Shown here in pieces: positions 541 through 23,756 of a stretch of 64,000 nucleotides of DNA (position 1 is the stretch's first letter; the number at the start of each line of letters is the position of its first letter). A model generated the notes under the pieces. The model did not search any database and was not told where the DNA came from. It saw only the letters and a list, made by a program, of their open reading frames with translations. The stretch is from an uncultured bacterium (GTDB lineage: Bacteria > Omnitrophota > Omnitrophia > Omnitrophales > Aquincolibacteriaceae). Made by a program: the position numbers and the translations under genes. Location of the stretch: the NCBI GenBank assembly GCA_964482725.1, contig CAYZYT010000004.1, positions 104,063 to 168,062 on the forward strand, read 5' to 3'.

Positions 541-3500
541 ATGAGGGAGAGCTCTATTTTAAAACGAGTGATTAGCCTGGTCGTCGTTGTTTGCTTCCTG
601 ACAACGAACGCGATGGCTATGCCTGGTCAAACCCTGGATGGAGGATGGGGGATGGCGGGTGTAGAAAAAGCAAAAGCCATCTCTGTTCCCTCTGGGCTCG
701 GAAGTGTCGTGGAAACATATGACGCCTCAAAACAGGATGGCGGAAGGCGGAGGGAGGATGGCAACAAACTAAAAACCGAAGCTCCGTCCACCATCCTCCA
801 TCCTTCCCCCAGATTTGTTATTTACATCCAAGACGCGCACGACTCGCTCGAGGCTCAGGAAAATATCGCCGCCATGGTCCGGCACTGCGTGAAGGAATAC
901 GGCGTCAAAACCGTCTACGAAGAAGGTTATGAAGGCCCGGTCCCGACCGACAAGCTCTTTGGATCGATCCAGGATCCGGTTCTTAAGGAAAAGATCTCTT
1001 ACTACCTGATGGACAAGCTCCGCATCGGCGGCGCGGAGTATGCGCATATCAATCGGGCGGCGGAGCCGCCCTCCCGGGAAACGGCTAACGATGAACGGTT
1101 AACGATGCGTTCAGCGTTCCCCGTTCCCCGTTCCCCGGAAAGCGATTTTCAGCTTGTAGGTGCCGATTCGATCAGCCTCCATCTTGAGAACATCCGCGCC
1201 TACGAGCAGGCGGCGAAGAACCGTACAGGCGTGACGCAAGACATTCAGCGTATCCGCAAAGAACTTCAGAAGCTGGCTGACAAGAATTTCCCGAAGGAAA
1301 TGAAAGAATGGTTGAAGCTCAAAGAACGGTATCAGAACGGACAGCTGCCGCTCGTTGAATACTTGGCAAGAACCATGAAAATCCGGGAGACGGATGGAGG
1401 ATGGAGGATGGCGAAGGGCGTAAAGCCAGGTTTGCCGCCATCCGCCATCCACCCTCCGGCCCCCAGCGTTGAAGCCCTCCTCTCCGGTGATCCGAAAGCC
1501 ATCAAACAGATCGATCTGATGAAATTGATCGGGGAGATCCAAGCTCTCGAGAACGAGATCGTTGAGGCAGGTCTCCCGGCAGAAAGGGACCGGAAAACGT
1601 ACGGTTACTTCGAGAGCGTCATGCTCCTTGAAAAACTCAACAAGATCGAGCTCAGCCACGAGGAATTCACGTTCCTCAAAGATTCGCTCGAAGGCCTCAA
1701 GACCGAAGATGTTGCTCGCTTTATCGCGAAGGAAACCGGTCACTCGCTCGTACTTTTCAAGTCTTGGGAAAATCTAATTGCCGATTCGATCCATTTCTAC
1801 GAGCTGGCGAAGAAGCGCGATCAGGCAATCGAGAAAATCCTGACCAAGACTACAGACGAGAGACTAGAGACCAGCGACAAAAAAAGTCTCCTGTCTCCAG
1901 TCTCCGGTCTCGAGTCTCCAAAAACCAAAGCGGATATCTCCGTTTTGGTTTTTGGGGGTTTCCACAAAGAAGCCATCAAGCGGATCCTGAAGGAAAAAGG
2001 CATCAGCTACGTCATTTTGTCACCCTCGATCGGAAATCCCAGCAAGCGGCATGAGGATTATTACCGAATGTTGATGGGCGGGGGGAGGCATTCGTTTGAA
2101 CGAATGCAGGGTATCGGAGGGAGGATGGAGGATGGAGTAAAACAGAAAACAAAAGGTTTCTCGCCCTCCGCCAACCGTGGCGAGAGCGTTTCTCGCCAAA
2201 GCACCCGCGCTCAATCCGTTTTCACGATGAACTACGGTTCCACCGTCGATCTTCTTTCCAAAACCGCCGCGCCATTCCGCAACGAACTTCGGCAGGATTT
2301 TATTTTAAAGATGGACCTCGCTATTCAGGGACGGTTCTTGAATGCCGGGGCTGAGGCCAAAGAACCGTCCCTGGTTGACAATTCTGCCAAACGCTCCGAA
2401 GTGCGGCAAATGTTGCAACAAGGCCCGGCAACCAAGCGCGACGGATTTATTTCCGCAGCCTGGAAAAAGCAGCGGGCGAAGCTCCTGCAAAGCGCCAATT
2501 ACCGGCTGCTGGAATACATGATTCACCAGACCGACCTTTCCGAGCGTCAGAAAAAAGGGTACCTCTATCTTTGGGAAACGATGATGCTTTTGATCCCGCT
2601 CACCAACGGAGTCAAGATCCCCGCAAGCGCTTGGGCGGTGTCTTTGGCGATCGCTCATCCTGCTTTTACGATCCTTCCGGCGATCATTTGGTGCACCTTG
2701 AGTTCGGTCCTTCGCGCCATTTTTGTGATACCGCCTTTCGCTTTTTACTATCGCTTCAGGGTCAGGGAGCTCGTGCTGGCGAACTTTCTTCCGTTCGGCG
2801 CCGCTTTTGTCGCCGTGCCGACGCAGGTGCTTGCGATCATGCGCGAAGAATACAAGCGGTTCGGGGACCTGTCTTTTAAACAGCTGGCGAAGCTTCACGA
2901 GACCGTGATCCGAAAAGTTCTTGAGGAAAATCCCAAGGATGAAGCGCTGCTCGCGCGGACTCCGGAGCTGACTTTCCGGCTGCTCGAATGGCGTTCCCGG
3001 AAGTACGGGGCCGATGCGGCAAAAGCGCTGCTGCTTCCGGCAAGGCTCACGGACCTTCTTCAAGAGGCTGACCCGAGCAAAGCTGCGTTGTCTGCACAAC
3101 GAGCAACGGCGTTAGCGAAAACGGTCATCTTCTTTCCTCCGTCAGGGTTTCACCAGGCCGGCTCAAGGGGGAGCGCTCTTTATGAAAATTCCGCGACCAT
3201 CAAGCGGCTTTACGAGAGAGTCAATCAAAAGGCGCGGGAAATTCTCGGGGATCCTGCCTTCGATATTTTTGACGTTTCCTTCAACCAGACCGAAGAGGAT
3301 TATTTGCGGGGTAACAATGCCGTCGCGGTGCATCTGGCCATTGCAACCCATCACATGGCCTTATGGGAAAGCCTGAAGGAAAAATATCCGGAAGCCGGCC
3401 GGCCCGGAGCGGTTCTTGGCGCGAGCCGGGGAGCGGATGCGGCCTATTATGCGAGCGGAGCGCTCGGCTTGGAAGATACCGTCGAGCTTGCGGTCCGGAA

Positions 3501-6500
3501 CATTCAGTTCTTGAAAAAAGCGTCCGAGCTTTCGGGTTCCCGGAGGATCGGAAGTGTTTCCCGTCTTTCCCGGGAAACATTGGAGGCCCTGCTAGCTCCG
3601 GAAGAAGGCGCGATCGCGGTTCAATATTCGAAAAATCTTTTCGCTGTTTCTTACAGGAAAGACTCTTTCGAAAAACTCGAACAAGATATCAAATCGGCGG
3701 GAGGCGTTCTCAGAAAAACGCTCCTCAGCGTGTCGAGCCATGATCCTCATCTTCTCACGCCGGAAACAAAGCCGCTCTTTGAAGAATACCAAGCGTTCCT
3801 CGAGGGATTTAAAGCGCGCATTCGTCTGCCCTCTCTGAAGCTTTTCTCGGCACTCGAGCCAGGGAAAGAGCTTAAGACGCCCGAAGACATCCTGAGCGAA
3901 GAGGTGCGTTACACCACCCAGGCGATTCCGCTGGACCGCTCTTTCGCCGACCTCTTGCAAGGAGCGGGACTGCAGAATGTTTTGGGGCTCGGCTATGAAA
4001 AGGATTATTTCATCCAGGCCCTTCAAAAGGAAGGGACGGTGTCCGGGGATGTTCGTGTGGCGCAAGCGGCCGACCTCGCGGATTATGGATCTTTTTGGAA
4101 TCTTTTCTCTCGGACAGAAAACGTAGGCGCAGCCGGTACCGTACGCTCCGAAGTGCGGGCCGCCAATGATCCGAAAGATATATTCGAAGGCGAGCCTCGC
4201 CTCTCCGTCGAGAGGCGGGATGGAAATGTTCTTTCAGGGGATGCCCGAACCCTCTCCGGCGGAAGGGTTTTGAGTTGGGATGAGGCCGTGCAGCACGCCC
4301 CGGAACTAGCCCGAAGGGTGGCTCTGAGCGGAGGCTTTGCCGGTTTTTTTACGCATCTTGGCAGAGCCTGGAATGATCCCTACAGGGAAATCGACCCAGC
4401 GATCGTCGAGCGTTATTTTGAAAACGTGCGAGCCTGGGGTCGCAAGGAAAATGGCGTCGTTTTCATTCTTGGCGGAGTTCCGGAAAAAATCGGCGAGCTT
4501 TTTACGCAGGCGGTGGTAATTCATATCCCCAATGTCCCTGACAACGATCCGATCCCGTTGATCGCCGGGAAGGAATCTTTTGATCCCATGGTTGAGCTGA
4601 TGAAAAAGATAGGTGTTCGCGGGATTCTTCCCTATGGCGGAGAGTATGCCCGCTTCGATGAACAAGGGCGGGTGTTACAAGGGTTTGATCCGGGGCTTGG
4701 TTGCGCAGGCGGACCGCTTTTTATTTTGAGCCGCTTTTTTGCTGTTCACGTATACCCTCAACTGCTTTTGGGAGGTTTGATCAATAAGCACTTGGGTGTG
4801 GCGGGTCTTCCACTTGAAACCGGAAAATATCTCACGGAACCCCGCTCGGAAATCCGGAATATCCCAGCAGGTTCGAAGCTTTCGCGACGGGAAGCTTTCC
4901 GGTGGGCGGCCTTATTCGATGAAGAGTTGAGTCAACGGGGACGCGCGCTCGTGTCGGCAGCGACGAAAGAAAAACTTTCCGTGAAGAGGGATACCCTTTT
5001 AGGGGGCGTGAATCGCTACAGCGCTCCGGAGAAAACCGCCATCCTTTCTTTTCGCGACAAGGATTCTCTGGGCCAGATCTATCTTCTTTTTCTGGATCGG
5101 GAAAACCGCCCCGCAGGCTATGGGTCTCTTTACAGCTCCGGAAAGGACAAGCCCGTCGTCGTATCCTTCCACATCTTTTCGGAATTCAGAGGCCGCGGGC
5201 TCGGCGAGGATTTCTGGAATGCGATCAAAAGCTTTCTCAAACAAAACGGCATGGGGTATGTCCCTGAGAAAGTTTACTTCCCGCCCGTTTCATGGTTTGC
5301 GGAGCGCGGTCTGGGGGACGATTTCAAAAATTCAGGCGTCCAGGAATTTCTGGTCAAAATGGGTTTTAAGCCTGTCGGAGTGAAGCCTTCCGCCACGCCC
5401 GGAGATGTGGCCTTTCTTTATAACTTGGGCGATGGGGAAAAGCCTCAGGCCGGAGTCGCGCGAAGTGAGGCCCGGTCTTCAAACGAAAGCCGGGAGCAGC
5501 TGACGGACGCAGGGATGGATCAATACGCCTTTTTTTACTGGAACAATAATAGTCAGTTCGATGCCATCCCGTACACGCTTGAAAAGCCGTTGTGGGAGTG
5601 GAGGGCCGGGGATATTTTTGTTGTCGAAAGCAGAGAAAAAACCGAGACCTATCTGCTTTTGGAGCAAACGGATTTTGGCGTTGTGACCTTTACTTCGCCT
5701 AGGGATTTTGGAGAGCCTGAAAGACGGAATATCCGTGAGTGGAGGATGGACTTTGGGCGAGATCTCGACCGGGGTGCCAGGATCACGGTCCGAAGGTATT
5801 ACGATGCCGGCAAGATCCCGACACTGCTCCATTTTGCGAATGAGGGACGTTTAGAGCCGGACACGCTCCGAGCTTATTACAAGCGGATCATTCTCGGGGT
5901 TTTGATTATCGCCGCGCCTCCGGTTTTGGGGCTGTATATGTTTGGCCTTTTAAAGCCGTGGTTCATCTCGATGGTTTTAGGAGTTCTGGCGCTGGCTCTT
6001 CTGGCGGGTCCCGTTCTTTTCCGATTTAAAGCGGGTAGTTTTATTTTCGATCTTAACCAAGCGCTTCCTTTCCGGATCCCGCCGCCGGGGACGAAACTTT
6101 CCAAGTTTGAATCCTGGAGAATGAATTTCCCGTCCTCTTCCGCCCGATCGGAAGCGCGTCTCTCGCGAGGGACAAGCCCGGAGCCTACGGCCGCCGGAGA
6201 ACAGGCTCTGGGAAAAGGTCCCCGGGAGGCGGAATGGCCCGAAGTCAGCCGCCAGTTCAGATCCCTGAATCCCTACAATATTCACAATATGCCGAGCGCC
6301 GTGCTTTCGGAATTGGCGTCGGAGATAGCGAACAAGTTAAACGTTTATGTTTTTGTCAGGAAAAATCACAGCGGCAAACGATGGATGAGTCAGGTTATGG
6401 AGATTTTGAGTCTGAGGATCGTTTATGACCAGGATATCGAAGTTTACGTGAAAGGTCGCCAGACTCCGGAAGTTTTAAACGCTACGTTGGACCTGGTTGA

Positions 6501-15500: not shown

Positions 15501-18500
15501 AAGCGCGGCCCGGCAGTACCGTGTTCTTCTTGAGGTCTTGCACGGGCTCGACAAAGGGAAGCTCCCGTTCGACAAAATTGTCAGCCAGAACGACTTTGAA
15601 ACCGTCCGGCAATACACTTTTTCAGACAACGGAACCCTGTATCCGGTCCGCGTCATCTGCCGGTGGGAATCCGCCGAAGCAAAAGAGGCAAGGCTTGCCG
15701 TGAATGTCCTTTTGCCGCTGGGGTCCTCTTCTGAGGAGGACATCGCCCGGCACAAGAAGGGGCCCGGGCTTCCGCCGCTTTCCGACAGGCAAATGATCTC
15801 TCTGCGGATCGATTGGAGCAATAGGACCGAACGGGCGGAAATGGATATTTCCGGAGGTTCAAACGAAAAACTTCCTTTTGCGCGTAGGCATTGGGTCCTG
15901 AACGACTTGTCCCGACAGGCGACTTTCAGGAACTTTGTTCTTGGGATGGACCAAAAGCTCGCGAAGCTTTCCTCGGCTTCTGCGCCCGTTCCATCTGAAA
16001 AACATCGTTCTGAGATGAGGGAAGTCTTTAAGCTTGGGGGCGAGTTCACGCGCGAGACGATGGAGCGGATGATCCGCGAGCTGGCCGGACAACAGAAAGT
16101 CGATTTTGAGACGGAGGAGGGCGACAGGTTCACCGTCCATTACACTTTTCAGGATCAAGGCTATCAACAGGGCTGGTACCAGCCTTTCCGCGCCGAAGGT
16201 GAACGTTTCCGGCTCCTACTGACCCGGCATGTTGGCGCGAGCGAAGATCAGGTTGCTTTTGCGAATGCCAAACTTGTCGAACGGGACGGGAAGAAAGTCG
16301 CTGTCATGGATCATGGGTTCGGGAAAGAAGAGATCCTGAAGGGAAAGAGCATTTTAATGGATCGGGAAGTCGTCGCTTTGCAGACCGAGGACCGGTATGT
16401 TGGGTTGTTCAAAGGGATCGGGACGGCGATGATGCAACTCGCATGCGGCGTGGCACGAGCCCATGGGGCGGATGTGCTTTACGCCGAATCCATTGCTAGC
16501 AAGGAATTGGAATCCTTTTATGTTCAGGCCGGCGGTGTCATGGAAGATTATCAGGCGGTTTTTGAGGTTATGGATTCCTCCGAGGACGGGAACGCTGCTT
16601 CTACTTATTTCAGCACGAGACAACGCGCAAAATTCGATTTAAAAAGCCTTCCTCAGCTGGAACGTTTCCAGATTGAGAAGATTAGTTCCGACGCAAAACT
16701 TTCCGGGCACCGCGTACTCGCCTTATCCGACGAGGTGCAGAAGCATAATCCAAGCCCTGCGGATCTCCCAAGCAATTTTGAGATGAATCGTTCGGAAGTG
16801 CGGGGGAAGAATATTAATCGGAAAATTGTTGTTGCGATGACGCCGGAAGCGGAAAAACGTGCCCGGCGACTCCAGCAAGCGCTTAAACTTTTGGCGACGA
16901 CGTATCCTGAAGGTGTGACTTATGAGCTTGTTGCCAAAACCATGAACGAGCTTCCCAGGGATCCGGAACCTTCTCTTTCGTGGTATGCGCTCGCGAAATG
17001 GACCGAAGCCCATCCGGACCTTCCTTCGGTCGTTTTATTGAGAAAAATGCAGCGGGCTTCTTCGGCGCTCCAGGACGCGCTGAGCGATCTTGTAAAGCGA
17101 CCCGCAAAACAGAATTGGACCCCAGATCTTAAAAAGCTCCGGCACGACCTTCTTGGGAAAGCCCTGGAGTTGAACCTCCACGGAGCTTTTGTTTTTCATC
17201 CCTACACGGACGAGCGATACGTTTGGCGCGTCCTGGGATTCATGGAAGATGGGTGGAAAGCGGTATTTGAGGACATTCAAAGCAAAGAGGGCCAACTCTT
17301 GATCACGCTGCGTCTTGAAAAAGAAGGCGAGGAAGTTTTCCTGAGAACCTTTGCTGTAGGAAAAGAGAAACGGGCTTTGCTGGGCGTGCTCGGCAAAAAA
17401 GGTCAGCCGACAAAACAAGCCCTGGATATTCTGCCGCTGGAAGACAAGACCATTTATGGAGAAGAGAAAAAAGCCTACCGCATTCTTTCGGAACTTGTCG
17501 GCAGGCCGGAAGGTTACGCCTGGCAGGCGGATGAAGATAAATTAAACGATTTGATCGGGGAGGAGCTCGGCGAAGTTTCTCCACGAGGTGTTTCGAGCTT
17601 TTCGCCAGCCAAGTATTTCGCCTACCGGTGGTTTCTTTTGGGAACGCGTGAAGCGGGATGGAGCGCCAGGATCATGGAGGCGGGGATCCGGAGCGCCGCG
17701 CCTGTTTTTAAAGTTAAATTTTACAGAGAGGACGGGAAAAAAGAAGCTTTCGAAAAGGAATATCAACTAGGGCCTAAGCGGAAAGATCTGAAATATACCG
17801 GCCCCCGGAAAAACACGGCGCCTCTTTCCATTTGGGACATCGTGCCATTGAATGATGCGGGAGTTTTTGCGCCGGAACGACCCGCCCAAGAAAAAATAAC
17901 GGAAGCGCTCGCGGCCCTTCTGGCGGAAGGTGCGGTGGTCTCGCAGGCATTACTTGCCGAAAAAGCGGATGTTGGGGAGAACACCGTTGTCCGCATCAAA
18001 AAAGAAAACGCGGTTCTCGGGAAAAAGATCGATGAAGCCGTAGCGACCTCGCTTTATAAGAAGATCGAAGCTTTTCTCAAAGATCATCCCGGGGCCAAGC
18101 AAAAAGATATTGCGGAAGCGATCGGCGTGAGCCCGAGTGCGATCGTCTACTATAAGAGCACGAATGAAGAAATCCGCAAATTGATCGAAGTGAATCAGCC
18201 GGTTCAGGATAAAAAAGCTCTCTCGCCAGGAAAGGGGTCTCAGACGAAGGAAACAAGATCTGCCCCAAAGACAGAAGCACCGCGGAAAGAAAAAAAGATC
18301 CCTCAGCCCAGAGTTTCCCCCGCGCAAGACAAGCCCGCCATTCCCGAGGAGAAACCTGAAGAGGGAAAAGCGGCAAAACCCACGGAACTCAAGGGTGTCA
18401 CCGCCGTTCCCGAGATCCAAACGTACGCCATGCTTGATGAGGGGATTGTGACGCTTTTTGAAAGACGGTACGCTCCGATTTTGGAAGAACTTTCGGACCA

Positions 18501-21500
18501 GGCGGTGGATGAACCTTCGGAAACGGTCGAAAAAAGCGAAGCGCTTCTCGGGCGGCTGGATCTTGTTTTGAAAAATTTTGAAAAGTCTTCTCCGACGCTG
18601 TTGGGGAGGCTGAAAAATATACGGGGCAAATTGGAGAGCATTCAGTCTCTGGCCCGCGTGAACGATGATGCGGGTTTTGATGGCTCCGAGGGCGAATCGC
18701 GCGACCCGTCCCGTTCGGAAGTTCGGACCGCGCCGGATCTAACAATAAAGGCAGAGGACAGAACGCGCTTCCTGAAAAAGAATCGCGGGAAAGACCTGAA
18801 CGAGATGGTGAAAAGCATGATCCGGGACGCAACACGGTACTCCGAAGAAGGCGCGGCGCGGGTTCTTTATGCGGAGCCGAAGGAGCCTGTTTTTATTCCT
18901 GAAAAATATGATGCTTATCTTGGCTACAGTGCTTTGGATACGGCGCTTTGGGAAATTTTCGGGAATGCGCTTAAATATTCTCCCAAAGAAAAACCGATCC
19001 GGATCGCGCTTGAAAGGGAACCCGGGCACATTCTCTTGAAGGTCTCAGATTCAGGCATTGGGATATCCGCTGAAGAAATGAAACATGCCGGGACAGTAGG
19101 TTGGCGCGGAGAGCGGGCCCAGGCCTATTTCAAACTTGGCGCCGGAAGAGGGATCGCTCAGACAAAAGAGATCATCGAAAGGATCTACGGCGGTTCGGTA
19201 ACGATTGAAAGCCCCGGGGAAAACCAAGGGACGATCGTTACCATAACGCTCCCTCTGAGCGATTCAGCGGGACGGGCAAAGTTGGATTCAGACAAGCTCC
19301 GCTACAAAGACACAGCGGACTTTATGGCCCGACACAGCGTGATAGAGAAGGGCGTGGTCTATACGGTTCGGGATATTCTCGACCGGGAGTTGCCATCCGC
19401 GGTTTATGCGCTTGAAAAGGTCCAGGAATTACGCCGGCGAATGGACGCATCCGGTAAGCGAGAAACGCCGCTTATCCTTTGGCAGAATATGAGCTTGGGG
19501 CAGTTCTTTCCTTATTTTAGCGAAACCGTTAAAACGGAGCTGGGAGTCTTGGAGCTGTCCGAAGATGTTTCGAAATGGCAAGCCCAGATCGCGGATCTTC
19601 AGCCGGGCAAAAGCCGCTTCATTCTGATCAAACAAAAAATAGCTTCGAGCTTCCCGGGGGAGAATAAAGATTACGCGAATTATCCGGAAGAGGAGTGGGA
19701 CCCGTCGGTGGAGACTTGGGGGGCGAAGGAAATAGAGAGGATCGCCAAGACTTTGCGCGCTCCCGTTGTGATGGTGGATCATACGGGGAAGGAATTCTCA
19801 AACGGACAAAGGCTCTTGGCGGAGCACGCGCAGCGAAGCGGAATTAAAACGCATTGGATGAATAGCCGCTTGAGCGAGGACCTTGGGAAGGATAAAGATC
19901 TTTGGAGCTCGGACAGTCTCCTCGTGCTGCTCAATGCGAATGCAGATCCAGAGAGAAAGAAATCCTTATTCGATGATAGTGAGAATTTTTCAAAAACCCG
20001 GCGGATCCTCTCGGGGATCATTAACGGAGAAAAGATAAACTTCGTCGACGCACTTATGGAGGCCTATGCGGCCGCTACGCTCCAGGCTCAAGAAGCTCGT
20101 CGCTCGGAAATGCGTTTGCCCGCGAGCGGGGGGAGAAAATCCTCCGGAGCGGTGACTTTTCTCAAGAAAAAGGAAGTCCCGGGAGTCGTTACGGCAGTTT
20201 CTTTCGAAGGAAAACCGTATGCGCTGTCCGCGATCGGGACGATGCTGCAGATCCGGGATCAATTCAATTTTGGCATTCTTCTTTTCAAGCTGATTCCCGA
20301 ACGCCAGCGCAATGCCTTTATCGCTTCTTTGCCGCGGGAGACTCAGGAAAGGGTTCAAGCCTACCGTCGCGCACCCGCGGCCGGCGCTACACGGCTTATG
20401 GTCGAGGTCCTCAAAAACGAGGATTTTACGGCGCAGATCAAAGCCAATGCGGCGGTCCAGATTGGGATCGGGCAGGACCTAGCTACGAGTGTCGTGAGGT
20501 TCGAGGTCGAACAAGTCTCAGATGAAAAAGCCGTTTTCAGGATCTTTCTCGGGGAAGTGCCGGTCGAATATGACGTCAGCCTCGGGAAAACCTACATGGT
20601 GGCCCGGGAGAAGGTTTTGGAGGAGCCGCTCGATGCCGCCGAACTTTTTACTGTGTCGTCCGATGTCCTTTCCGCGGGCAAGCACTTTTCTTTCCGGATG
20701 TTCCTGAAAGATAATGCGACCTGGATCCATATGGTTGATTATAAGTCTACGAACGGAACGGTTCTTTGGGCGGAGGTTTATCCGAAGAAAGTGGATTATC
20801 CGAGGCGCAAACAGGACCGGGCGATCTGCGAGAAAGAAATTCGAAAAATGCTGGAGGACTTTTCGGACAAAATGCGGGCCGATGGCCTCGCGACGGACCC
20901 GGAGACGAAAGATGTGAAGTACCAGGAGGCCTTAAACGAGGCGGCCTCGCTCTATATCGAGAGTTCCAAGTTTCACGAACTGGAAGAGCTGAGGAAAAAA
21001 TTGATCGAGAACTACTTTTTTTCCAATACCAGCTCTTCTCTCGGGGCTTCGACGAGGAGCCAGTACGCCCTTGAAACGCTGGAATCTTTACTGGAGGATG
21101 ACCGGATCTCGGTTTGGGAGCCCATCCTCGAGGCGGCTGTTAAATACGTCCGGTACTTTGTTCATCTGGTCCGTCTTCTCAAAACCGAAAAGCTCAAGCT
21201 CGCCCCGTCTAAGCTCCAGTACGAGATGGTGCGCGCTCTTTCCAAAATAAACGGGAAGGAAACAGAGGTCCCGGAAGCGTCCAAATTCAACAAAGAGATC
21301 TTCGGCAAAACCCTCCGCATCGACACCTTGCCGAGGTCTGAAGCCCGGACTTCCCGAACCCCGGATCAGACCCCGGCTCTAAACCCCGGGTCTGCGGCGG
21401 GTGCGAAGCGGGAAGAATCTGGACAAAGTGTTCGCAACGCCCTGGTCGTGCGGGACCGGATCGAGAAACTCACGGGCGCCGGGACGATCCTGATGAGTCG

Positions 21501-21984
21501 AATGGAGCTTGCAGCTCTTACGAAGGAACAATGGGAAGAATTTTTCATCGTGGCTTCGGCTGCGGCTGAGGGACGCAAAGATGCCAGGATCGTTCTTTAT
21601 GGTGAAACACCAGGGACGGTTCTCGAAAAAGGGAGAACCGTCCCTGAGACTTCACGCGAAGAGATTCTTCGGCAGATCGAAGGCGGGAAGATCTTTGTTA
21701 CCGAGCTCGGCATGGAAGCGGCATTTCAGAAATTCGGCATTCCCAACAAAGCGGCTGTGGATCTTTATGGCGCTGCCGTTCGTCGGGAGCGTCATTCTCT
21801 GGTCAAATCACTCCGGCTGGACGGAAGAAGCGGTCTTATCACGCTCGCGCTCCTTTATGTGCTCGCAGACGGCAAAGAAAAGGCCGTGACGGAATCAGCA
21901 TCCGGCGAGCTTTCTGTCCGCGCCGAACTTCGCGCGGTCCTGCAGGATTATCTCTCCCAGCAAGTTGTGGCGTGGGCGGCATAA
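541..21984 (+). CDS. Giant multidomain protein (7,147 aa). It has an N-terminal signal peptide and TM segments. It also has acyltransferase, GNAT, PP2C, SAM-MTase, Ser/Thr kinase, atypical kinase-like, HTH and GHKL-ATPase modules.
   Basis: A single stop-free frame of 21,444 nt. N-terminus MRESSILKRVISLVVVVCFLTTNAMA looks like a signal peptide. Several canonical catalytic motifs are listed as sub-features below. Upstream RBS is AAGGGAAAA. Confidence 0.85.
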   Translation: MRESSILKRVISLVVVVCFLTTNAMAMPGQTLDGGWGMAGVEKAKAISVPSGLGSVVETYDASKQDGGRRREDGNKLKTEAPSTILHPSPRFVIYIQDAHDSLEAQENIAAMVRHCVKEYGVKTVYEEGYEGPVPTDKLFGSIQDPVLKEKISYYLMDKLRIGGAEYAHINRAAEPPSRETANDERLTMRSAFPVPRSPESDFQLVGADSISLHLENIRAYEQAAKNRTGVTQDIQRIRKELQKLADKNFPKEMKEWLKLKERYQNGQLPLVEYLARTMKIRETDGGWRMAKGVKPGLPPSAIHPPAPSVEALLSGDPKAIKQIDLMKLIGEIQALENEIVEAGLPAERDRKTYGYFESVMLLEKLNKIELSHEEFTFLKDSLEGLKTEDVARFIAKETGHSLVLFKSWENLIADSIHFYELAKKRDQAIEKILTKTTDERLETSDKKSLLSPVSGLESPKTKADISVLVFGGFHKEAIKRILKEKGISYVILSPSIGNPSKRHEDYYRMLMGGGRHSFERMQGIGGRMEDGVKQKTKGFSPSANRGESVSRQSTRAQSVFTMNYGSTVDLLSKTAAPFRNELRQDFILKMDLAIQGRFLNAGAEAKEPSLVDNSAKRSEVRQMLQQGPATKRDGFISAAWKKQRAKLLQSANYRLLEYMIHQTDLSERQKKGYLYLWETMMLLIPLTNGVKIPASAWAVSLAIAHPAFTILPAIIWCTLSSVLRAIFVIPPFAFYYRFRVRELVLANFLPFGAAFVAVPTQVLAIMREEYKRFGDLSFKQLAKLHETVIRKVLEENPKDEALLARTPELTFRLLEWRSRKYGADAAKALLLPARLTDLLQEADPSKAALSAQRATALAKTVIFFPPSGFHQAGSRGSALYENSATIKRLYERVNQKAREILGDPAFDIFDVSFNQTEEDYLRGNNAVAVHLAIATHHMALWESLKEKYPEAGRPGAVLGASRGADAAYYASGALGLEDTVELAVRNIQFLKKASELSGSRRIGSVSRLSRETLEALLAPEEGAIAVQYSKNLFAVSYRKDSFEKLEQDIKSAGGVLRKTLLSVSSHDPHLLTPETKPLFEEYQAFLEGFKARIRLPSLKLFSALEPGKELKTPEDILSEEVRYTTQAIPLDRSFADLLQGAGLQNVLGLGYEKDYFIQALQKEGTVSGDVRVAQAADLADYGSFWNLFSRTENVGAAGTVRSEVRAANDPKDIFEGEPRLSVERRDGNVLSGDARTLSGGRVLSWDEAVQHAPELARRVALSGGFAGFFTHLGRAWNDPYREIDPAIVERYFENVRAWGRKENGVVFILGGVPEKIGELFTQAVVIHIPNVPDNDPIPLIAGKESFDPMVELMKKIGVRGILPYGGEYARFDEQGRVLQGFDPGLGCAGGPLFILSRFFAVHVYPQLLLGGLINKHLGVAGLPLETGKYLTEPRSEIRNIPAGSKLSRREAFRWAALFDEELSQRGRALVSAATKEKLSVKRDTLLGGVNRYSAPEKTAILSFRDKDSLGQIYLLFLDRENRPAGYGSLYSSGKDKPVVVSFHIFSEFRGRGLGEDFWNAIKSFLKQNGMGYVPEKVYFPPVSWFAERGLGDDFKNSGVQEFLVKMGFKPVGVKPSATPGDVAFLYNLGDGEKPQAGVARSEARSSNESREQLTDAGMDQYAFFYWNNNSQFDAIPYTLEKPLWEWRAGDIFVVESREKTETYLLLEQTDFGVVTFTSPRDFGEPERRNIREWRMDFGRDLDRGARITVRRYYDAGKIPTLLHFANEGRLEPDTLRAYYKRIILGVLIIAAPPVLGLYMFGLLKPWFISMVLGVLALALLAGPVLFRFKAGSFIFDLNQALPFRIPPPGTKLSKFESWRMNFPSSSARSEARLSRGTSPEPTAAGEQALGKGPREAEWPEVSRQFRSLNPYNIHNMPSAVLSELASEIANKLNVYVFVRKNHSGKRWMSQVMEILSLRIVYDQDIEVYVKGRQTPEVLNATLDLVERAMQDWKMLEESTKENPLYDAYLREIDQIAQGSATRTLKAAYRTFSDAAISRAIDAVDYNHGEIDPATGEAKRDEVTDAAFRRLDALYEAVPGVITVPRSEFMGFFGKRQPEFAANKDRLIKPFSALSDAEKTALVRWNEIRRSEARDVPEVAQTQGSREEQEDRFVNEKISLGAVPHGEGRLLAVMDGHGGDEVSEMLRANLERVFKDSMLRKNGDVQQALQEVFGRLQKMAAGSESGSTLSLAYVPEDEKAAYVMIVGDSPVYVRKNGRLISFPEHNLSNPVEVITQQQRASSAGKKFRVDYDFKRENGKDLLRKIGTTENTSLAITRAFGNKSFQGLLIGEPSILKTDLSDAQGPVEVLLGTDGIYGFHGNDSKIQRDARAGYLLSRGTDAAGIVQSAGSANASDNVTVLLWKFDPNTVRSEMRQDIHSPARTGAGTREVPAEMRQDIHSPARTGAGTKEVPAELRGAEKPDDRESWTRFLNTYAPALSGFGGTSLEQVWREIFENTPEHARILDLATGNGAVAGLAAAMAAKFFEVWAIDSAEPKVIPQGVNFRKASMETFSGTTDMPADLDLVTGQFAIEYGETDRVLGEIHRAMKAGGKGVFIIHHKNSFWAERAKSLLEQTDWVKKAGIFERIRQWVQDPSEEKRGRFEAVLDVLRSEISKRRAQKSENDVLSSIFRIANTTFEAVRNGKLSGLAEQIQEVEEQWNNTVWVKEHMIHAAFDGEAMARFKTAIEARGFQVVGIEPWQIRGTIRTEEQDLLVGWRVEIQKPGILSPETRQERDWIKEVQWPDPEAALRANDGPFHIPSKEDEALQIFLDSGKGTPDYALNQKAEYLGKLLNILGALDKTRLWWGTGNEENWSGWVKHSFANYLNNLLALVGFSLRNEDPLSEQSAKDLKEQIEFADAIWSARKELAASVANNFKNYPEILQPAPEGKGLSKENTFSRIELNFAFPHKVFVASPNAERNRAIYAEALRRMEGPFQEILKLAREQLSEYEKGTALPAEPKKDKRSEVRDPQAFLENTGPVDAEQFERMILGKRFDDLAPEQRARFIEFIRSRNLHNLAPSLQRLILDHVQRHAGEENDEMKALWSCTLRLEPGSAEIYRQEVSILRSSVAPLAKKVSEGYSIVTVEESSKGIRTQTNLSKTKTEDPSAEVWEFLIPDQVETSGGVYTIAKPGTDAVVIGSGGSGSVVIRARKQDGTPVAMKIIKEDGKSMHRFFLEYLMTLRFKGDPNIIQVYDSGRYVVQAQRFYFIMEEYGERTLADEVRARSKKLGEGVEIFSPPERRKIANEMIDILQTLYAARILHRDVKADNLFYSGGRLKLGDFGIARCLPQEKDEINSDALEGTPTHIPVESFAGASGFYNDLYEFAMTMAFLDPSTLADDFGATTRGQMRRVSVPTSMFTKNLAGLAQTDAAYKKFYEMREFSKKTLAGTLVRLERSQDPFTQLVVRPILDREHYQDSPRNAQELDQLAASVFFIEKTTDLIREGQPAEARRYVAALLGEGSTFATYPIVREKVEELRLAAEASSVRSEMRNGKTSTKPAMIERKAEGKGRIWIAELKYPRKMLSLGVRYAGKTLKLYPYDEDWKKGTLIFDEEEPIAVYVSQEDLFSVLEEETTTDAKGRFIREGLRYNLGENKAHLKISLRPFETPDWKTGVRIFEGQAEIAYHDAKRNRTVNLISIAPFRRSGAREVGTADLRDVPHVHRKDLWKTGLYGSEELKQILKAMLESEDIVFDERRYKVSLYALPAEELVALMDYLRAQRIRVNGYLYRELLQEHQEDMARYIEKTRAAGSDLKYLGAPAYQLYADLLPAAEEVNPSLYVDSQPPRYHDDVFSSLKKEYRAQLQEIRRQGDKIGLAVHGVREWKWRDMSGQSRDREIGMDDGKMRFLNVLLEGRIRNFTMPFSFSKLKVDVGYLDTEHDTNFSDRGDAGTYGPYYILLDPRWRHDAQGGIGEEHHKYYLVPNDSMRKFLTGGLEQALAGGLIDPERLEVLKSKIMTYREYADILSGRGAASRAELREEKAPNRERKMEKIRQRPSRRSDGKESKWDVFDRFVQKVNLLNFEEVKQTEELKSLSKKRELLVSFGIPEAAEVEAKYLIGAIGKLFKKMQAEGAGRQQPIIWTDFLSYGGQGRYLTAYKDENPEGGWIVKVAASEESSRYMDLYSLEGTRLALERLGGGLAASTMIIDGRKNGKDFFFRSGKRAMYESVAIVQEKLLPLVEYLKQVGRRGASDREVSEAIGYMEKYKQLAIAMYRRGIVDADNFNVVGNYGIRPSDKSLAIFDLGDLTDSLRSAQSFVAELDSFNEDRADDSAEIDGVLLDPKVSRAFTDNPFRTEDFVLHGKDLFGSEFDPKKHGMTFPLSEDEVRRMFLGSSIREPSQDRRSEIRISGANKKLARKEDRRAELRDAETWRGRGAESPLRLEKVTLLNELAAKVPEGTKRTFRALANASGGRYSYSAIRGIAVYYAITPEEGGFEPEEIWTRKEWVENLPKGARALSRGQRPTAENISAALKEKFGIVRSPAQIREALSFHKITYREVEMVRDLSIDPRNDDAWKEFFKRHVQTLGPGLHAVSELAEKLSSVAANKKLEAGFIGIGASQIERIMILHRLSYEELGLKKVRPAPKTQDEWILLVRELVDKIPAGVKKTLGNAAQASGGLFTYSRLYHAMSDHDISYNEVGLETPRRQPRRSRADWLAYFKELAAAIPEGFRKVLGNAAEFSEGAVTFSQLLKAKVNHGFSYEEIGLERFYQILGLVPESVDWQIQTSYEKGRSGKGRWETVRTKAVGPRILGPDEEASRQERMDHLEKTIVLLGSDAGKMIDQVLDALAQGASMDNLSDLSEKSDVDPQALREMMGRLRKIYHRLVAGQPIPQEWIGESETQDYPTGAPTGLSQGVLSRSEVRNGQALKMWGAWKTKEEALIDLELKKSQAMLAMHPWSFLALLNGKENPRLSGEIGELLNRCFEMLAWAVGQFHGQPVEVLQMEEARKLESAARQYRVLLEVLHGLDKGKLPFDKIVSQNDFETVRQYTFSDNGTLYPVRVICRWESAEAKEARLAVNVLLPLGSSSEEDIARHKKGPGLPPLSDRQMISLRIDWSNRTERAEMDISGGSNEKLPFARRHWVLNDLSRQATFRNFVLGMDQKLAKLSSASAPVPSEKHRSEMREVFKLGGEFTRETMERMIRELAGQQKVDFETEEGDRFTVHYTFQDQGYQQGWYQPFRAEGERFRLLLTRHVGASEDQVAFANAKLVERDGKKVAVMDHGFGKEEILKGKSILMDREVVALQTEDRYVGLFKGIGTAMMQLACGVARAHGADVLYAESIASKELESFYVQAGGVMEDYQAVFEVMDSSEDGNAASTYFSTRQRAKFDLKSLPQLERFQIEKISSDAKLSGHRVLALSDEVQKHNPSPADLPSNFEMNRSEVRGKNINRKIVVAMTPEAEKRARRLQQALKLLATTYPEGVTYELVAKTMNELPRDPEPSLSWYALAKWTEAHPDLPSVVLLRKMQRASSALQDALSDLVKRPAKQNWTPDLKKLRHDLLGKALELNLHGAFVFHPYTDERYVWRVLGFMEDGWKAVFEDIQSKEGQLLITLRLEKEGEEVFLRTFAVGKEKRALLGVLGKKGQPTKQALDILPLEDKTIYGEEKKAYRILSELVGRPEGYAWQADEDKLNDLIGEELGEVSPRGVSSFSPAKYFAYRWFLLGTREAGWSARIMEAGIRSAAPVFKVKFYREDGKKEAFEKEYQLGPKRKDLKYTGPRKNTAPLSIWDIVPLNDAGVFAPERPAQEKITEALAALLAEGAVVSQALLAEKADVGENTVVRIKKENAVLGKKIDEAVATSLYKKIEAFLKDHPGAKQKDIAEAIGVSPSAIVYYKSTNEEIRKLIEVNQPVQDKKALSPGKGSQTKETRSAPKTEAPRKEKKIPQPRVSPAQDKPAIPEEKPEEGKAAKPTELKGVTAVPEIQTYAMLDEGIVTLFERRYAPILEELSDQAVDEPSETVEKSEALLGRLDLVLKNFEKSSPTLLGRLKNIRGKLESIQSLARVNDDAGFDGSEGESRDPSRSEVRTAPDLTIKAEDRTRFLKKNRGKDLNEMVKSMIRDATRYSEEGAARVLYAEPKEPVFIPEKYDAYLGYSALDTALWEIFGNALKYSPKEKPIRIALEREPGHILLKVSDSGIGISAEEMKHAGTVGWRGERAQAYFKLGAGRGIAQTKEIIERIYGGSVTIESPGENQGTIVTITLPLSDSAGRAKLDSDKLRYKDTADFMARHSVIEKGVVYTVRDILDRELPSAVYALEKVQELRRRMDASGKRETPLILWQNMSLGQFFPYFSETVKTELGVLELSEDVSKWQAQIADLQPGKSRFILIKQKIASSFPGENKDYANYPEEEWDPSVETWGAKEIERIAKTLRAPVVMVDHTGKEFSNGQRLLAEHAQRSGIKTHWMNSRLSEDLGKDKDLWSSDSLLVLLNANADPERKKSLFDDSENFSKTRRILSGIINGEKINFVDALMEAYAAATLQAQEARRSEMRLPASGGRKSSGAVTFLKKKEVPGVVTAVSFEGKPYALSAIGTMLQIRDQFNFGILLFKLIPERQRNAFIASLPRETQERVQAYRRAPAAGATRLMVEVLKNEDFTAQIKANAAVQIGIGQDLATSVVRFEVEQVSDEKAVFRIFLGEVPVEYDVSLGKTYMVAREKVLEEPLDAAELFTVSSDVLSAGKHFSFRMFLKDNATWIHMVDYKSTNGTVLWAEVYPKKVDYPRRKQDRAICEKEIRKMLEDFSDKMRADGLATDPETKDVKYQEALNEAASLYIESSKFHELEELRKKLIENYFFSNTSSSLGASTRSQYALETLESLLEDDRISVWEPILEAAVKYVRYFVHLVRLLKTEKLKLAPSKLQYEMVRALSKINGKETEVPEASKFNKEIFGKTLRIDTLPRSEARTSRTPDQTPALNPGSAAGAKREESGQSVRNALVVRDRIEKLTGAGTILMSRMELAALTKEQWEEFFIVASAAAEGRKDARIVLYGETPGTVLEKGRTVPETSREEILRQIEGGKIFVTELGMEAAFQKFGIPNKAAVDLYGAAVRRERHSLVKSLRLDGRSGLITLALLYVLADGKEKAVTESASGELSVRAELRAVLQDYLSQQVVAWAA
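735..805 (+). repeat. GGATGG/CCATCC hairpin element, copy A, in frame in the giant ORF.
   Basis: ggatggcggaaggcggagggaggatgg ... ccatcctccatcc. Translated DGGRRREDGNKLKTEAPSTILHPS. Confidence 0.6.
1392..1458 (+). repeat. GGATGG/CCATCC hairpin element, copy B, in frame in the giant ORF.
   Basis: ggatggaggatggaggatggcg ... cgccatccgccatccaccctcc. Translated DGGWRMAKGVKPGLPPSAIHPPAPS. Confidence 0.6.
2115..2178 (+). repeat. GGATGG hairpin element, copy C, with a degenerate right arm, in frame in the giant ORF.
   Basis: ggagggaggatggaggatgg-agtaaaacagaaaacaaaaggtttc-tcgccctccgccaacc. The loop aaaacaaaaggttt is shared with copy D. Translated GGRMEDGVKQKTKGFSPSANRG. Confidence 0.5.
3130..3800 (+). 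other. Malonyl-CoA:ACP transacylase (FabD/PKS AT)-like acyltransferase domain inside the giant ORF.
   Basis: Segment PGAVLGASRGADAAYYASGALGLEDTVELAVRN parallels FabD [29 protein letters not shown]. Nucleophile context GxSxG is retained as G-A-S-R-G. Downstream LLSVSSHDPH parallels the FabD LPVSVPSH His motif. Confidence 0.55.
5035..5265 (+). other. GNAT N-acetyltransferase-like domain inside the giant ORF.
   Basis: IYLLFLD...PVVVSFHIFSEFRGRGLGEDFWNAIKSFLKQNGMGYV resembles the GNAT acetyl-CoA-binding motif A (R/Q-x-x-G-x-G/A). Confidence 0.5.
7010..7755 (+). other. PP2C-type Ser/Thr phosphatase domain inside the giant ORF.
   Basis: LLAVMDGHGGDEVSE ... AYVMIVGDSPVYV ... AITRAFGNK ... LLGTDGIYGF. 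These match the canonical PP2C metal-binding motifs (MDGHGG, DG). Confidence 0.8.
7774..7899 (+). repeat. Perfect-frame 63-bp tandem repeat, 2 copies with 1 mismatch, inside the giant ORF.
   Basis: gagatgcggcaggacatccatagtcctgcacgcactggtgctgggacca[g/a]ggaagtcccagcc occurs twice head to tail. It encodes EMRQDIHSPARTGAGT[R/K]EVPA twice. The first copy starts inside an RSEMR motif. Confidence 0.95.
7990..8360 (+). other. Class I SAM-dependent methyltransferase domain inside the giant ORF.
   Basis: ILDLATGNGAVAG (motif I, GxGxG-like), followed by DLVTGQFAIEY and GGKGVFIIHH. Confidence 0.6.
10033..10870 (+). other. Hanks-type Ser/Thr protein kinase domain inside the giant ORF.
   Basis: Gly-rich loop VIGSGGSGSVV, lysine AMKII, catalytic loop HRDVKADNLF and DFG motif LGDFGIA. 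Confidence 0.85.
12560..13440 (+). other. Second, atypical kinase-like (phosphotransferase-fold) region inside the giant ORF.
   Basis: RGIVDADNFNVVG ... LAIFDLGDL resembles HxD..N catalytic-loop and DxG motifs of atypical/aminoglycoside-type kinases. Assignment is weak. Confidence 0.3.
13808..14775 (+). repeat. Three to four divergent tandem copies of a ~65-70 aa module inside the giant ORF.
   Basis: Copy at about 13808: KVPEGTKRTFRALANASGGRYSYSAIRG...ITPEEGGFE. Copy at about 14413: KIPAGVKKTLGNAAQASGGLFTYSRLYHAMSDHDISYNEVGLE. Copy at about 14611: AIPEGFRKVLGNAAEFSEGAVTFSQLLKAKVNHGFSYEEIGLE. A weaker copy ERIMILHRLSYEELGL lies between the first and second. The repeat is protein-level only. 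Confidence 0.6.
16380..16560 (+). other. Possible second GNAT-like acetyltransferase core inside the giant ORF.
   Basis: VGLFKGIGTAMMQLACGVARAHGADVLYAESIASKELESFYVQAGG has a motif A-like shape. Assignment is weak. Confidence 0.3.
18097..18160 (+). other. Helix-turn-helix motif inside the giant ORF.
   Basis: KQKDIAEAIGVSPSAIVYYKS has a typical HTH layout. Confidence 0.4.
18930..19260 (+). other. GHKL/HATPase_c ATP-binding domain of histidine-kinase/RsbW type inside the giant ORF.
   Basis: N-box-like EIFGNALKYS, G1 VSDSGIGIS, G2-like GAGRGIA and GTIVTITLPL. Confidence 0.7.
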
Positions 21985-21985
21985 C

Positions 21986-22157
21986 ACGTACGGCGTACGG
22001 AGTACGGCGAATAGAAAACATCTTGCATAACGCCTTACCCCGTACGCGATGCGTTCTGTGATATCCCTTAACAACATCAGGGAAATAGCGTACACTTCTC
22101 GAGCTTTTAACAACAAAGGAGGAATTCGCTCATCGCCGTACTCCGTACGCCGTACAT
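21986..22157. repeat. 25-bp near-perfect inverted repeat (24/25 match) flanking a 122-bp core, between the giant gene and ychF.
   Basis: Left arm cacgtacggcgtacggagtacggcg (21986-22010). Right arm cgccgtactccgtacgccgtacatg (22133-22157). Each arm contains a GTACGG triplet in direct repeat. The core contains ttaacaaca twice and an AAGGAGG. Confidence 0.7.
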
Positions 22158-22171
22158 GAGCGAAAGCGAAT

Positions 22172-23266
22172 ATGGGCTTCAAATGCGGTATTGTCGGTCT
22201 TCCAAACGTCGGTAAATCGACTATTTTTAATGCGATCGCCAAGGCGCATGCTGCGGCGTCCAACTATCCTTTCTGCACGATCGAACCGAACGTCGGCATG
22301 GTGCCGGTCCCGGATCCGCGTCTCTGGGAGCTGAGCAAACTCTTCAAGCCGCAAAAGACGACGCCGACTACGGTGGAATTTTATGATATCGCGGGGCTCG
22401 TCGCCGGAGCCTCCAAAGGTGAAGGCCTCGGGAACCAGTTCCTAGGGCATATAAAGGAAGTCGAAGCCATTCTCCACGTCGTCCGCTGCTTTGAGGACCC
22501 CAACATTGTGCACGTCTCGGGCACGATCGATCCTTCGCGTGATATCGATGTGATCGACACAGAGCTTTGTCTTAAGGACCTGGACACCATCAATGCCCGC
22601 TACAATAAGACCGAAAAACTGGCGAAGGCCGGCGATAAGGTGTCGAAGGAGCAAATGCCGGTCTATGAGAAAGTGAAAAAAGCGCTTGAGGACGGGACGC
22701 CGCTCCGCAATATCGGGCTGATCGAAGAAGAGAGGGCGCTTGTCAAAGATCTGGCGTTCCTGACGCTTAAAACCGTACTGTACTGCGCGAACGTTGCCGA
22801 AAAAGATCTGCCTGGCGGTGGGCCGTTCGTGAATCTGTTGCGCCAGCGCGCGGCCAAAGAGAGCGCCGAAGTGGTGGTGATCTCCGGGAAAGTCGAATCT
22901 GAATTGATCGATCTTTCCGAAGAAGATCAGCAGGTATTCCTGAAAGATTTGGGCCTTGAAGAACCGGGGTTGAATTCATTGATCCGGACCGGCTATAAAG
23001 CACTTCAGCTCATTACCTATTTTACGGCCGGTGAAAAGGAAGTGCGCGCCTGGACCGTTCGCAAAGGTTCCAAGGCGCCGCAAGCCGCGGGCGTGATCCA
23101 TTCCGATTTTGAGCGCGGGTTCATTCGCGCCGAAGTAATGAACTATGAAGATCTTCTGAAATACGGTTCCCAGGCCGCAGTCAAAGAAAAAGGTCTTCTT
23201 CGCGTCGAAGGTAAGGAATACGTGACGCAAGACGGCGATGTGATGCTTTTCCGTTTTTCAGTTTAA
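22172..23266 (+). CDS. ychF: Redox-regulated ribosome-associated ATPase YchF.
   Basis: [22 protein letters not shown]-loop and a TGS-like C-terminal domain. Confidence 0.9.
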
Positions 23267-23308
23267 AAAAAGGATTCGACTTTCCAACCTGAACAAGGAG
23301 GACGGCGT

Positions 23309-23737
23309 ATGATCCTGACTGAGATCGAGAAGATCAAGGAGGCCACCCAAGGCTCCCTCAAAGAAAAAAAAGGCGTCTATCATCTGGACGCCCTGATCGC
23401 GGAAAGAAAAGTATTCCTGTCCAAGAAGAAACTGACCTACCACGCCCAGATCAAAGTCGACGAAGCCGCTAAGCAGGTCCACTTTTTTGAAATGCTGAAG
23501 GAAGCTTCTTCCGGACTTTCTGCCGGCGGCGACTTGGACTCTCCCGGGTTTGGATTTAAAACCGAGACCTACAAAACCGGCCTCGGGCAGCCGCGAGAAG
23601 GCATGATCCAGGAACAATCAAAACTTTTCGGAAAAACCTACCAATACAAATTCGATTTTTCTACGATCCGGCAGTCTTTCCGCGACGCTATCGAACGCGA
23701 AGGATATTCTTTCCAATACAAAACACTGCCTTTTTAA
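23309..23737 (+). CDS. Hypothetical protein (142 aa).
   Basis: ORF with AAGGAGG RBS. No recognisable motifs. Confidence 0.45.
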   Translation: MILTEIEKIKEATQGSLKEKKGVYHLDALIAERKVFLSKKKLTYHAQIKVDEAAKQVHFFEMLKEASSGLSAGGDLDSPGFGFKTETYKTGLGQPREGMIQEQSKLFGKTYQYKFDFSTIRQSFRDAIEREGYSFQYKTLPF

Positions 23738-23756
23738 TCCCTCGAAGGGAGCTTTT

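Follow-up and report, generated by a model that had tools for sequence, protein, structure and literature searches.

Giant open reading frames (ORFs) of more than 20 kb are found in most classes of the bacterial phylum Omnitrophota, and their roles have been called "poorly understood" (Seymour 2023, PMC10066038). Enzyme-rich giants have been described as "Archaeovorins" (West-Roberts 2023, bioRxiv 10.1101/2023.11.21.568195), and a "multi-enzyme" class 1 is characterized by a signalling module of methyltransferase, HATPase_c, and GNAT domains (Nielsen & Lui 2026, bioRxiv 10.64898/2026.06.07.730766). Post-translational cleavage has already been speculated for the Omnitrophota multi-enzyme giants. 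Here, I analyzed a 64,000-nt stretch of the contig CAYZYT010000004.1 (assembly GCA_964482725.1) of an uncultured Omnitrophota bacterium. This whole stretch is called the window, and all coordinates are given on its forward strand. The window contains a complete ORF (541..21984, plus strand; 21,444 nt) with an ATG start, 7,147 codons, and a stop codon only at its end, exactly as a first-pass annotation of the same DNA had described it. This 21.4-kb ORF is a genuine gene of an Omnitrophota genome. What that annotation missed is the organization of the protein, which is an array of about 20 independent cassettes delimited by a pentapeptide and held between two constant, family-defining modules; it is not one integrated multi-domain enzyme.

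The giant protein resembles the published Omnitrophota multi-enzyme giants in its phylum, its ORF length of more than 20 kb, its signal peptide and transmembrane (TM) segments, its many unrelated enzyme Pfams, and its combination of methyltransferase, HATPase_c, and GNAT. The first-pass statement that this is not a described architecture was too strong, since such ORFs have already been published. As for size, 21,444 nt passes the limit of >20 kb (Seymour), whereas 7,147 aa stays under the limits of ≥10,000 aa (Nielsen & Lui) and ≥30,000 aa (West-Roberts). Unlike the Archaeovorin and dockerin types, in which SecA DEAD-like, C39 peptidase, and dockerin domains are frequent, the giant protein gave no Pfam or NCBIfam match to these domains at E ≤ 0.01. 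A delimiter motif, cleavage sites, a conserved head and tail, and cassette exchange are absent from the three papers. Literature searches on the motif strings, and on Omnitrophota with "polyprotein", "cleavage", or "autoprocessing", returned no prior description. The pentapeptide-delimited, capped cassette organization appears to be new.

The giant protein contains 19 copies of the pentapeptide R-[S/A]-E-[V/M/A/I/L]-R, while 0.2 copies were expected from shuffling (shuffle maximum, 3). The 19 copies, 15 nt each, are distributed over 2392..21933 on the plus strand; their first bases are nt 2392, 4144, 4843, 5461, 6145, 6928, 7768, 9550, 11116, 12571, 13675, 13732, 15223, 16006, 16789, 18712, 20101, 21334, and 21919. 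They cut the protein into about 20 segments, which are mostly 195–641 aa in length, with two short ones of 19 and 21 aa. No two recognizable domains share a segment, and all eight domain envelopes are free of the motif (chance 0.057). No in-frame motif was found in the other ORFs of the window. The synonymous codons vary at the motif (CGC, CGT, CGA, or AGG for Arg; TCC, TCG, TCA, TCT, or AGT for Ser). Thus, selection acts on the peptide and not on the DNA.

The conserved N-terminal module is followed by a spacer (2275..2406, plus strand) that comprises a degenerate RNELR (aa 579–583), about 34 aa, and the first canonical RSEVR (aa 618–622). The RNELR near-motif (2275–2289) starts 39 aa before this RSEVR. 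It was revealed that a double motif 30–45 aa apart after the N-terminal module recurs family-wide, often as RAExR and then RSExR, enclosing a short spacer of roughly conserved length. Another irregularity lies at 7768–7905 (aa 2410–2455), where a 21-aa tandem duplication directly follows the motif at aa 2410 (RSEMRQDIHSPARTGAGTREVP / AEMRQDIHSPARTGAGTKEVP / AELRG). Copies two and three bear the degenerate motifs PAEMR and PAELR. The homology of this cassette to two relatives, P0105 and P0065, begins only past the duplication.

Judged by sequence comparison, the giant protein is a large member of a phylum-specific, previously unnoticed family of capped cassette arrays. Hundreds of Omnitrophota proteins of 0.8–7.6 thousand aa share the same plan: a Sec signal peptide, an N-module of ~430 aa, cassettes, and a HAD-like C-module of ~200 aa ending in [SA]A. 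A word-indexed database yielded about 100 homologs of the first ~520 residues, all of which have N-termini comparable to the signal peptide of the giant protein. When 1.84 billion cluster representatives were searched exhaustively with phmmer, 284 matched at E ≤ 1e-30 and 951 at the looser limit of E ≤ 1e-10; the N-module is N-terminal in every match, and the proteins are up to 7,652 aa in length. A scan of one genome per species yielded 61 loci, and all titled records among them are Omnitrophota. The homologs and loci that carry a phylum name all belong to Candidatus Omnitrophota/Omnitrophica except for one weak match; many records have no title, or no label beyond "uncultured bacterium". The members found by the word-indexed protein search do not exceed 2,073 aa, while the exhaustive representative search returned many of 3,000–7,652 aa. 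This word-indexed search seems to under-report very long proteins, which is relevant to surveys of giant genes.

The cargo of the family is diverse. The N-module homologs are fused to normally cytoplasmic enzymes such as NUDIX, sigma-70, GT2/GT4, radical SAM, PGK, PGM, cytidylate kinase, and Dus. Amylase, PEP-utilising enzymes, methyltransferases, WD40, and HEAT are further fusion partners. An internal TM-like helix is absent in 42 of the 62 complete members, and in these 42 the head, cargo, and tail thus lie on the same side of the membrane. Genomes have several family paralogs each (as many as six among the recovered loci), some of which are in tandem. Five related loci (L015, L025, L030, L032, and L041) have a second family gene ending in [SA]A directly upstream on the same strand, and therefore the tandem arrangement is frequent among family genes. 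In this window, no second family gene ends upstream of the giant gene. At the loci L019, L008, and L056, the N-module ORF is split into consecutive shorter motif-bearing ORFs (528, 706, and 1,724 aa at L019). These broken ORFs could be frameshifts, pseudogenes, or assembly errors.

Is the motif a general feature of the family? In the first 104 homologs, 250 copies were counted in 149 thousand aa, and 95 further representatives had 636 copies in 334 thousand aa. The density is 1.71 per 1000 aa in the family ORFs versus 0.14 in the neighbouring ORFs, and most of the latter "outside" hits come from the end of another family gene that lies upstream. The first motif lies within about 20–90 aa after the N-module. 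The motif logo is strict and has no extended consensus. Because loosening any one fixed position drops the count to background (20–31 versus 222), all four fixed positions are needed. The flanks are rich in Ala, Ser, Gly, and Pro, and across 881 sites the share of hydrophobic residues drops from 0.33 to 0.17–0.23 in the roughly 10 aa next to the motif (p = 1e-90). The motif ahead of the C-module sits in a stretch of low pLDDT (predicted local distance difference test). The interval between motifs has a median of 306 aa, with a secondary peak at 25–50 aa.

The closest relatives of the giant protein suggest how such arrays change. P0106 (7,652 aa) is 60% identical to it in the N-module and 75% in the C-module, and the tail DYLSQQVVAWAA is identical in both, but only two cassettes are common and their order is different. 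Residues 2130–2414 of the giant protein (cassette 7, PP2C) correspond to residues 2994–3273 of P0106, with motifs at 2130 and 2410 and at 2994 and 3269, respectively. Residues 3519–3687 correspond to residues 2800–2963 of P0106, with motifs at 3526 and at 2807 and 2959. As in P0106, the caps are kept and nearly all of the cargo differs in P0105, L003, and L007. Cassette 5 of the giant protein recurs in L007 (59% identity) and P0105 (64%), and cassette 8 is common to P0105 (58%) and P0065. Since the homology blocks end at the motif, and since the caps stay while the cargo differs, these alignments indicate that the motif marks the boundaries of evolutionarily mobile units and that cassettes are exchanged between members there.

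The motif has genome-specific dialects. Homogeneity within proteins is 0.40 at position 4, versus 0.205 by chance (z = 29), and 0.73 versus 0.63 at position 2 (z = 9). P0192 has RAEVR 15 times and P0195 has RSELR 10 times. Some members that had seemed motif-less use RPEAR (8 times), RSETR, or RSEKR; because of these variants, the core of the motif is R-x-E-x-R. Paralogs of the same genome share a dialect: 14 of 14 copies are RSELR in JAUYMS, 16 of 21 are RSEAR in CAYGIT, and most are RSEVR in SICL01. The N-modules of such dialect-sharing paralogs are only 35–53% identical, barely above the level between genomes (39.6%), and the paralogs have no detectable common cargo, which rules out recent duplication as the cause of the shared dialects. 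Amino-acid composition or guanine-plus-cytosine (GC) content was ruled out as well: the binomial p values range from 6e-5 to 3e-12, and at equal GC content three genomes favour V, A, and L, respectively, at the motif. That a linker pentapeptide has evolved in concert across old paralogs implies that they share a reader of it, which the genome encodes.

What could the constant head be? The N-module of the giant protein (aa ~89–520; 805..2100, plus strand) has an α/β fold with a parallel β-sheet core and a large helical insert. In 40 sequences of the family, D98-x-H100, E127/E128, H169, R426, GGF-H475, and H504 are invariant, and R172 is nearly so (at least 90%). With the superfamily of TIKI, TraB/PrgY, erythromycin esterase, and ChaN, the N-module shares a parallel-sheet α/β core, an acid-x-His after strand 1, a Glu 28 residues later, and a GxxH after a later strand; its invariant Arg may correspond to the basic residue that is conserved at the active site of the superfamily. 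E128 lies 28 residues after H100, which is the spacing from H3902 to E3930 in RRSP. The N-module differs from the superfamily in that it escapes sequence profiles, has a helical insert of ~250 aa, and has Asp in place of the first Glu. Tiki and PrgY have extracytoplasmic domains behind a signal peptide, as is the case for the N-module. The 2His/2Glu set of the TIKI fold (E-x-H, Glu, and a second His, as defined in PMC6254334) is matched in sequence by D98-x-H100, E128, and GGF-H475. No match to the N-module was found in Pfam (including TraB, Erythro_esteras, and Cofac_haem_bdg), in NCBIfam, in PADLOC, or by phmmer and profile searches of the PDB, and Foldseek against the PDB gave no significant match. 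It is probable that the N-module is a hydrolase of the TIKI/TraB/EreA/ChaN/RRSP superfamily.

The C-module (aa 6932–7147; 21334..21981, plus strand) consists of a motif-bearing disordered linker, an α/β domain with a Rossmannoid HAD-like fold, and a terminal helix (RAELRAVLQDYLSQQVVAWAA) with the family-wide ending h-x-x-[SA]-A-COOH. The catalytic DxD of HAD motif I, with which strand 1 would end, is not conserved (LMSRMEL in the giant protein, FMDADNL in others). The sole invariant column of the C-module is the C-terminal Ala. Searches of Pfam, NCBIfam, and PADLOC, and phmmer and profile searches of the PDB, gave no match to the C-module.

The recognizable cargo was assessed by running Pfam with its curated cut-offs on slices of the giant protein and on single cassettes. 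Eight distinct domain types are spread over eight cassettes, and no enzyme Pfam dominates. Three domains proposed in the first-pass annotation stand above the cut-offs: the PP2C phosphatase of cassette 7 (6958..7608; 56 bits), the Hanks-type Ser/Thr kinase of cassette 9 (10069..10641; 84 bits), in which GxGxxG, VAMK, HRD, and DFG are all present, and the GHKL (HATPase_c) ATPase of cassette 17 (18931..19260; 64 bits). Its acyltransferase, GNAT, and methyltransferase were also found, but below the cut-offs. The FabD/MdcH-like acyltransferase of cassette 2 (3178..3747) scored 24.9 against 32.7 for Acyl_transf_1 (E = 1.8e-5), with NCBIfam matches to mdcH (E = 3e-11) and fabD (1e-7). The GNAT-like domain of cassette 4 (5065..5253) scored 19.6 against 20.7, and the class I S-adenosylmethionine (SAM)-dependent methyltransferase-like domain of cassette 8 (8014..8367) about 18 bits against 21–27. 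The sub-threshold scores agree across related models, and these three domains are taken as real. The helix-turn-helix (HTH) of cassette 16 (18073..18153) is weak and under the cut-off (HTH_24 and HTH_3, 17–18 bits). An HPr-like domain (PTS-HPr) in cassette 6 (6247..6501) had been overlooked; it scored 25.7 bits against 23 when the cassette was scanned alone. All of these domains are on the plus strand. The "second kinase-like fold" that had been assigned to aa ~4011–4378 is without support, since it has no match in Pfam, NCBIfam, PADLOC, or the PDB sequences. About 10 cassettes are without any match in Pfam, NCBIfam, PADLOC, or the PDB (phmmer and profile search). As the first-pass annotation had stated, the recognizable content is enzymatic and signalling, rather than adhesin- or RTX-like; Pfam gave no repeat or RTX match.

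Hydropathy bears out the signal peptide and the internal TM helices of the first-pass annotation. A signal-peptide-like segment covers aa 3–29, and internal hydrophobic clusters lie at aa 697–767 (2629..2841; 2–3 TM-like helices at the start of cassette 2) and aa 1780–1833 (5878..6039; two TM-like helices in cassette 5), both on the plus strand; nothing TM-like follows past aa 1840. The Sec-type signal peptide (aa 1–26; 541..618, plus strand) has the n-region MRESSILKR, the h-region VISLVVVVCFLTT, and the c-region NAMA|M. Its cleavage would occur at AMA|M, as read from the sequence by the AXA rule.

The HPr-like domain adjoins the PP2C phosphatase (6145–7767). Together with the Hanks kinase and a stand-alone GHKL ATPase (18712–20100), this is reminiscent of partner-switching or HPr-kinase-type signalling. 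Neither a STAS nor an HprK partner for such signalling was detected, and no HisKA domain was detected beside the GHKL ATPase of cassette 17 in Pfam or NCBIfam.

The neighbouring genes are housekeeping genes (YchF, a hexapeptide transferase, RNase H, PepA, RsmB, SpoU, MutY, and SuhB), accompanied by a gene for an Ig/BACON-domain protein. The latter is a 1,333-aa ORF (23757–27758, plus strand) downstream of ychF with MSP and BACON_2/Ig-like domains near its N-terminus, and its remaining part is unannotated; it may be a surface protein. A divergent ORF on the minus strand (~1–230) has a signal-peptide-like start (MLKIRKKTLVAGVVLSLFCLLMF...) and runs off the left end of the window. Since this ORF runs on the minus strand, the region from ~230 to 540 in front of the giant gene is a divergent intergenic region. 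A tRNA scan found no tRNA gene in the window.

Several systems outside Omnitrophota have a comparable layout. In MARTX toxins, the N- and C-terminal regions are conserved and the set of effector enzymes between them varies from strain to strain, much as the cargo varies between the relatives of the giant protein; one MARTX effector, RRSP, belongs to the same fold superfamily as the N-module. The MARTX effectors are freed by an in-built protease that cuts the inter-domain linkers, whereas cleavage in the family of the giant protein is only inferred. Moreover, the giant protein lacks RTX or glycine-rich repeats, a C80 cysteine protease (Pfam and NCBIfam), and a type I secretion signal; it has a Sec signal peptide instead, its delimiter is a strict pentapeptide rather than Leu-X, and its caps are TIKI-like and HAD-like. 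By analogy, the giant protein would resemble a MARTX toxin in its working at most, and it is not a member of that group. Viral polyproteins of the picorna-, flavi-, and nidovirus type have one ORF for many mature proteins, a recurring short junction site, and a protease in the same chain. The giant protein likewise has the same short sequence at the junctions of protein-sized units. Unlike them, it is encoded by a cellular chromosomal gene amid housekeeping genes, its cassettes are shuffled between paralogs, and there are several paralogs per genome. Multi-core precursors of ribosomally synthesized and post-translationally modified peptides (RiPPs), such as the cyanobactin precursor PatE, and polymorphic toxins share with it a leader, repeated recognition sequences, interchangeable cargo, and constant ends. 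In contrast to their short peptides or toxin tips, the cargo of the giant protein consists of folded enzymes of 200–640 aa, and no immunity genes or modifying enzymes adjoin the giant gene.

How might the array work? I put the chance that the protein is processed at the motif, i.e., that it is a polyprotein, at just short of even. The pentapeptide would be a recognition site for the genome-encoded reader, most probably a site-specific endopeptidase. The whole polyprotein would be exported via Sec and then be cut into cassettes. The best candidate for the protease may be the N-module of the family itself, because it is the only enzyme-like element in every member, lies right before the first site, and has the fold and the residue set of TIKI. 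The TIKI fold includes the endopeptidases Tiki and RRSP, both of which are sequence-specific (PMC6254334). The released ATP-, SAM-, and DNA-dependent cassettes may act in the cell's own compartment or in a prey or host cell; the latter is considered because Omnitrophota have been described as epibiotic predators or parasites (PMC10066038). The complete scenario, in which exported arrays are cut at a genome-specific R-x-E-x-R by the TIKI-like head and the cassettes act as effectors in prey or host cells, is possible yet rather doubtful. Several observations weigh against processing at the motif or against the head as the protease. A single trans-acting reader fits one dialect per genome, despite divergent heads, at least equally well. 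The fold scores of the N-module are modest, and because the TIKI superfamily also holds esterases (Ere) and the haem-binding ChaN, a protease activity cannot be taken for granted. The giant protein has 2–3 and two TM-like helices between the N-module and most of the cargo, and the head and aa 1834–7147 may lie on opposite sides of the membrane. Some members show a single motif or none across more than 3,000 aa. The pentapeptide is not confined to linkers either: a subset of members also has it within the folded C-module ("RSELRLVIYN") and on the terminal helix. With a Sec signal peptide in front of them, kinases that need ATP, enzymes that need SAM, and an HTH are difficult to assign to any place but a cytoplasm.

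Some of these points would suit a giant scaffold that stays unprocessed, an explanation that I consider possible though rather unlikely. The protein would be an intact membrane-anchored or surface multi-enzyme assembly, and the pentapeptide a docking or hinge element for a non-proteolytic partner. Such a partner might be a chaperone or an export factor, or else the N- or C-module, which would bind the motif and so compact the chain. Published work treats Omnitrophota giants as intact coat or membrane proteins, and peptides of a 39,678-aa V. archaeovorus protein have been detected. The motif copies inside the folded C-module and the terminal helix suit a scaffold, and the dialects require a reader that is not necessarily a protease. 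However, that the cassettes are functionally unrelated and shuffled in any order speaks against an ordered assembly line. A strict five-residue site placed in disordered linkers, with protein-sized units on either side, is what processing sites classically look like, and the family has its own hydrolase-like head with an intact set of catalytic residues. It is less probable still that the polyprotein is cut by a trans-acting protease, encoded elsewhere in the genome or belonging to the prey, and that the N-module is an esterase or lipase for the prey envelope or a binder of a ligand or haem. One dialect per genome in old paralogs with divergent N-modules is simplest with a single trans factor, non-proteases are included in the TIKI superfamily, and the TM helices may part the head from the cargo in the giant protein. 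On the other side, the N-module is always found directly before the first motif (20–90 aa) as the only enzyme-like element common to all members, and the 64-kb window has no candidate protease except the housekeeping M17 aminopeptidase. There is very little to be said for a post-translational modification site unrelated to cleavage, at which the kinase cassette might phosphorylate Ser, or Arg or Glu might be modified. The giant protein does carry a kinase and a PP2C, and R-S-E resembles a basophilic or acidophilic phospho-site, but Ala stands for Ser at 17% of the sites, whole proteins use RAExR or RPEAR, and kinase cassettes are absent from most of the motif-bearing members. The phospho-site reading was rejected, as Ala or Pro replaces Ser. 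It is hardly credible that the whole is an artefact, i.e., that separate genes were fused by mis-assembly or sequencing error, or that the motif is a scar of DNA-level recombination. The sequence is metagenome-derived, and ORFs are broken at the related loci L019, L008, and L056. The first-pass annotation had asked for a check on the assembly: two Logan assemblies, obtained independently from different SRA runs, match the window with 100% identity at 21194–26773 and 21420–23475. The 3′ end of the ORF and its stop codon are thereby confirmed, but the two assemblies cover only its last 790 nt. A false fusion or mis-assembly is nonetheless very unlikely on present sequence evidence, because the N-module of the family at the start of the ORF and its C-module with the canonical tail lie in frame 21 kb apart. 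The proposed look for giant homologs in related genomes turned up relatives of 6,000–7,652 aa with the same caps in independent assemblies. A DNA-level repeat or recombination site at the motif was rejected, since the codons are degenerate (CGN/AGR, TCN/AGY) and there is no conserved DNA site.

Giant genes make up a sizeable share of the small Omnitrophota genomes; the three studies call their function poorly understood, and one of them states that further analysis was blocked because cleavage points were not known. The motif and the constant caps give a rule for cutting the giants into units for annotation and structure prediction. The motif and the head also give a concrete, testable hypothesis, namely cleavage at R-S-E-x-R by the TIKI-like head. 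Thus, the family plan turns the question of whether and where Omnitrophota giants are processed into a directly testable one. The exchange of cassettes between capped arrays would be an evolutionary mechanism for the growth and diversification of such genes. If the protein is indeed processed, it would represent a cellular polyprotein strategy whose scale has no known parallel among bacteria, with a new pair of a site-specific protease and a recognition site that has the natural specificity variants RSEVR, RSELR, RSEAR, and RPEAR. If the complete scenario holds true, it would be the principle by which the unexplained giant genes of these ultra-small predators are organized, and also an independently arisen bacterial counterpart of viral polyproteins and MARTX toxins.

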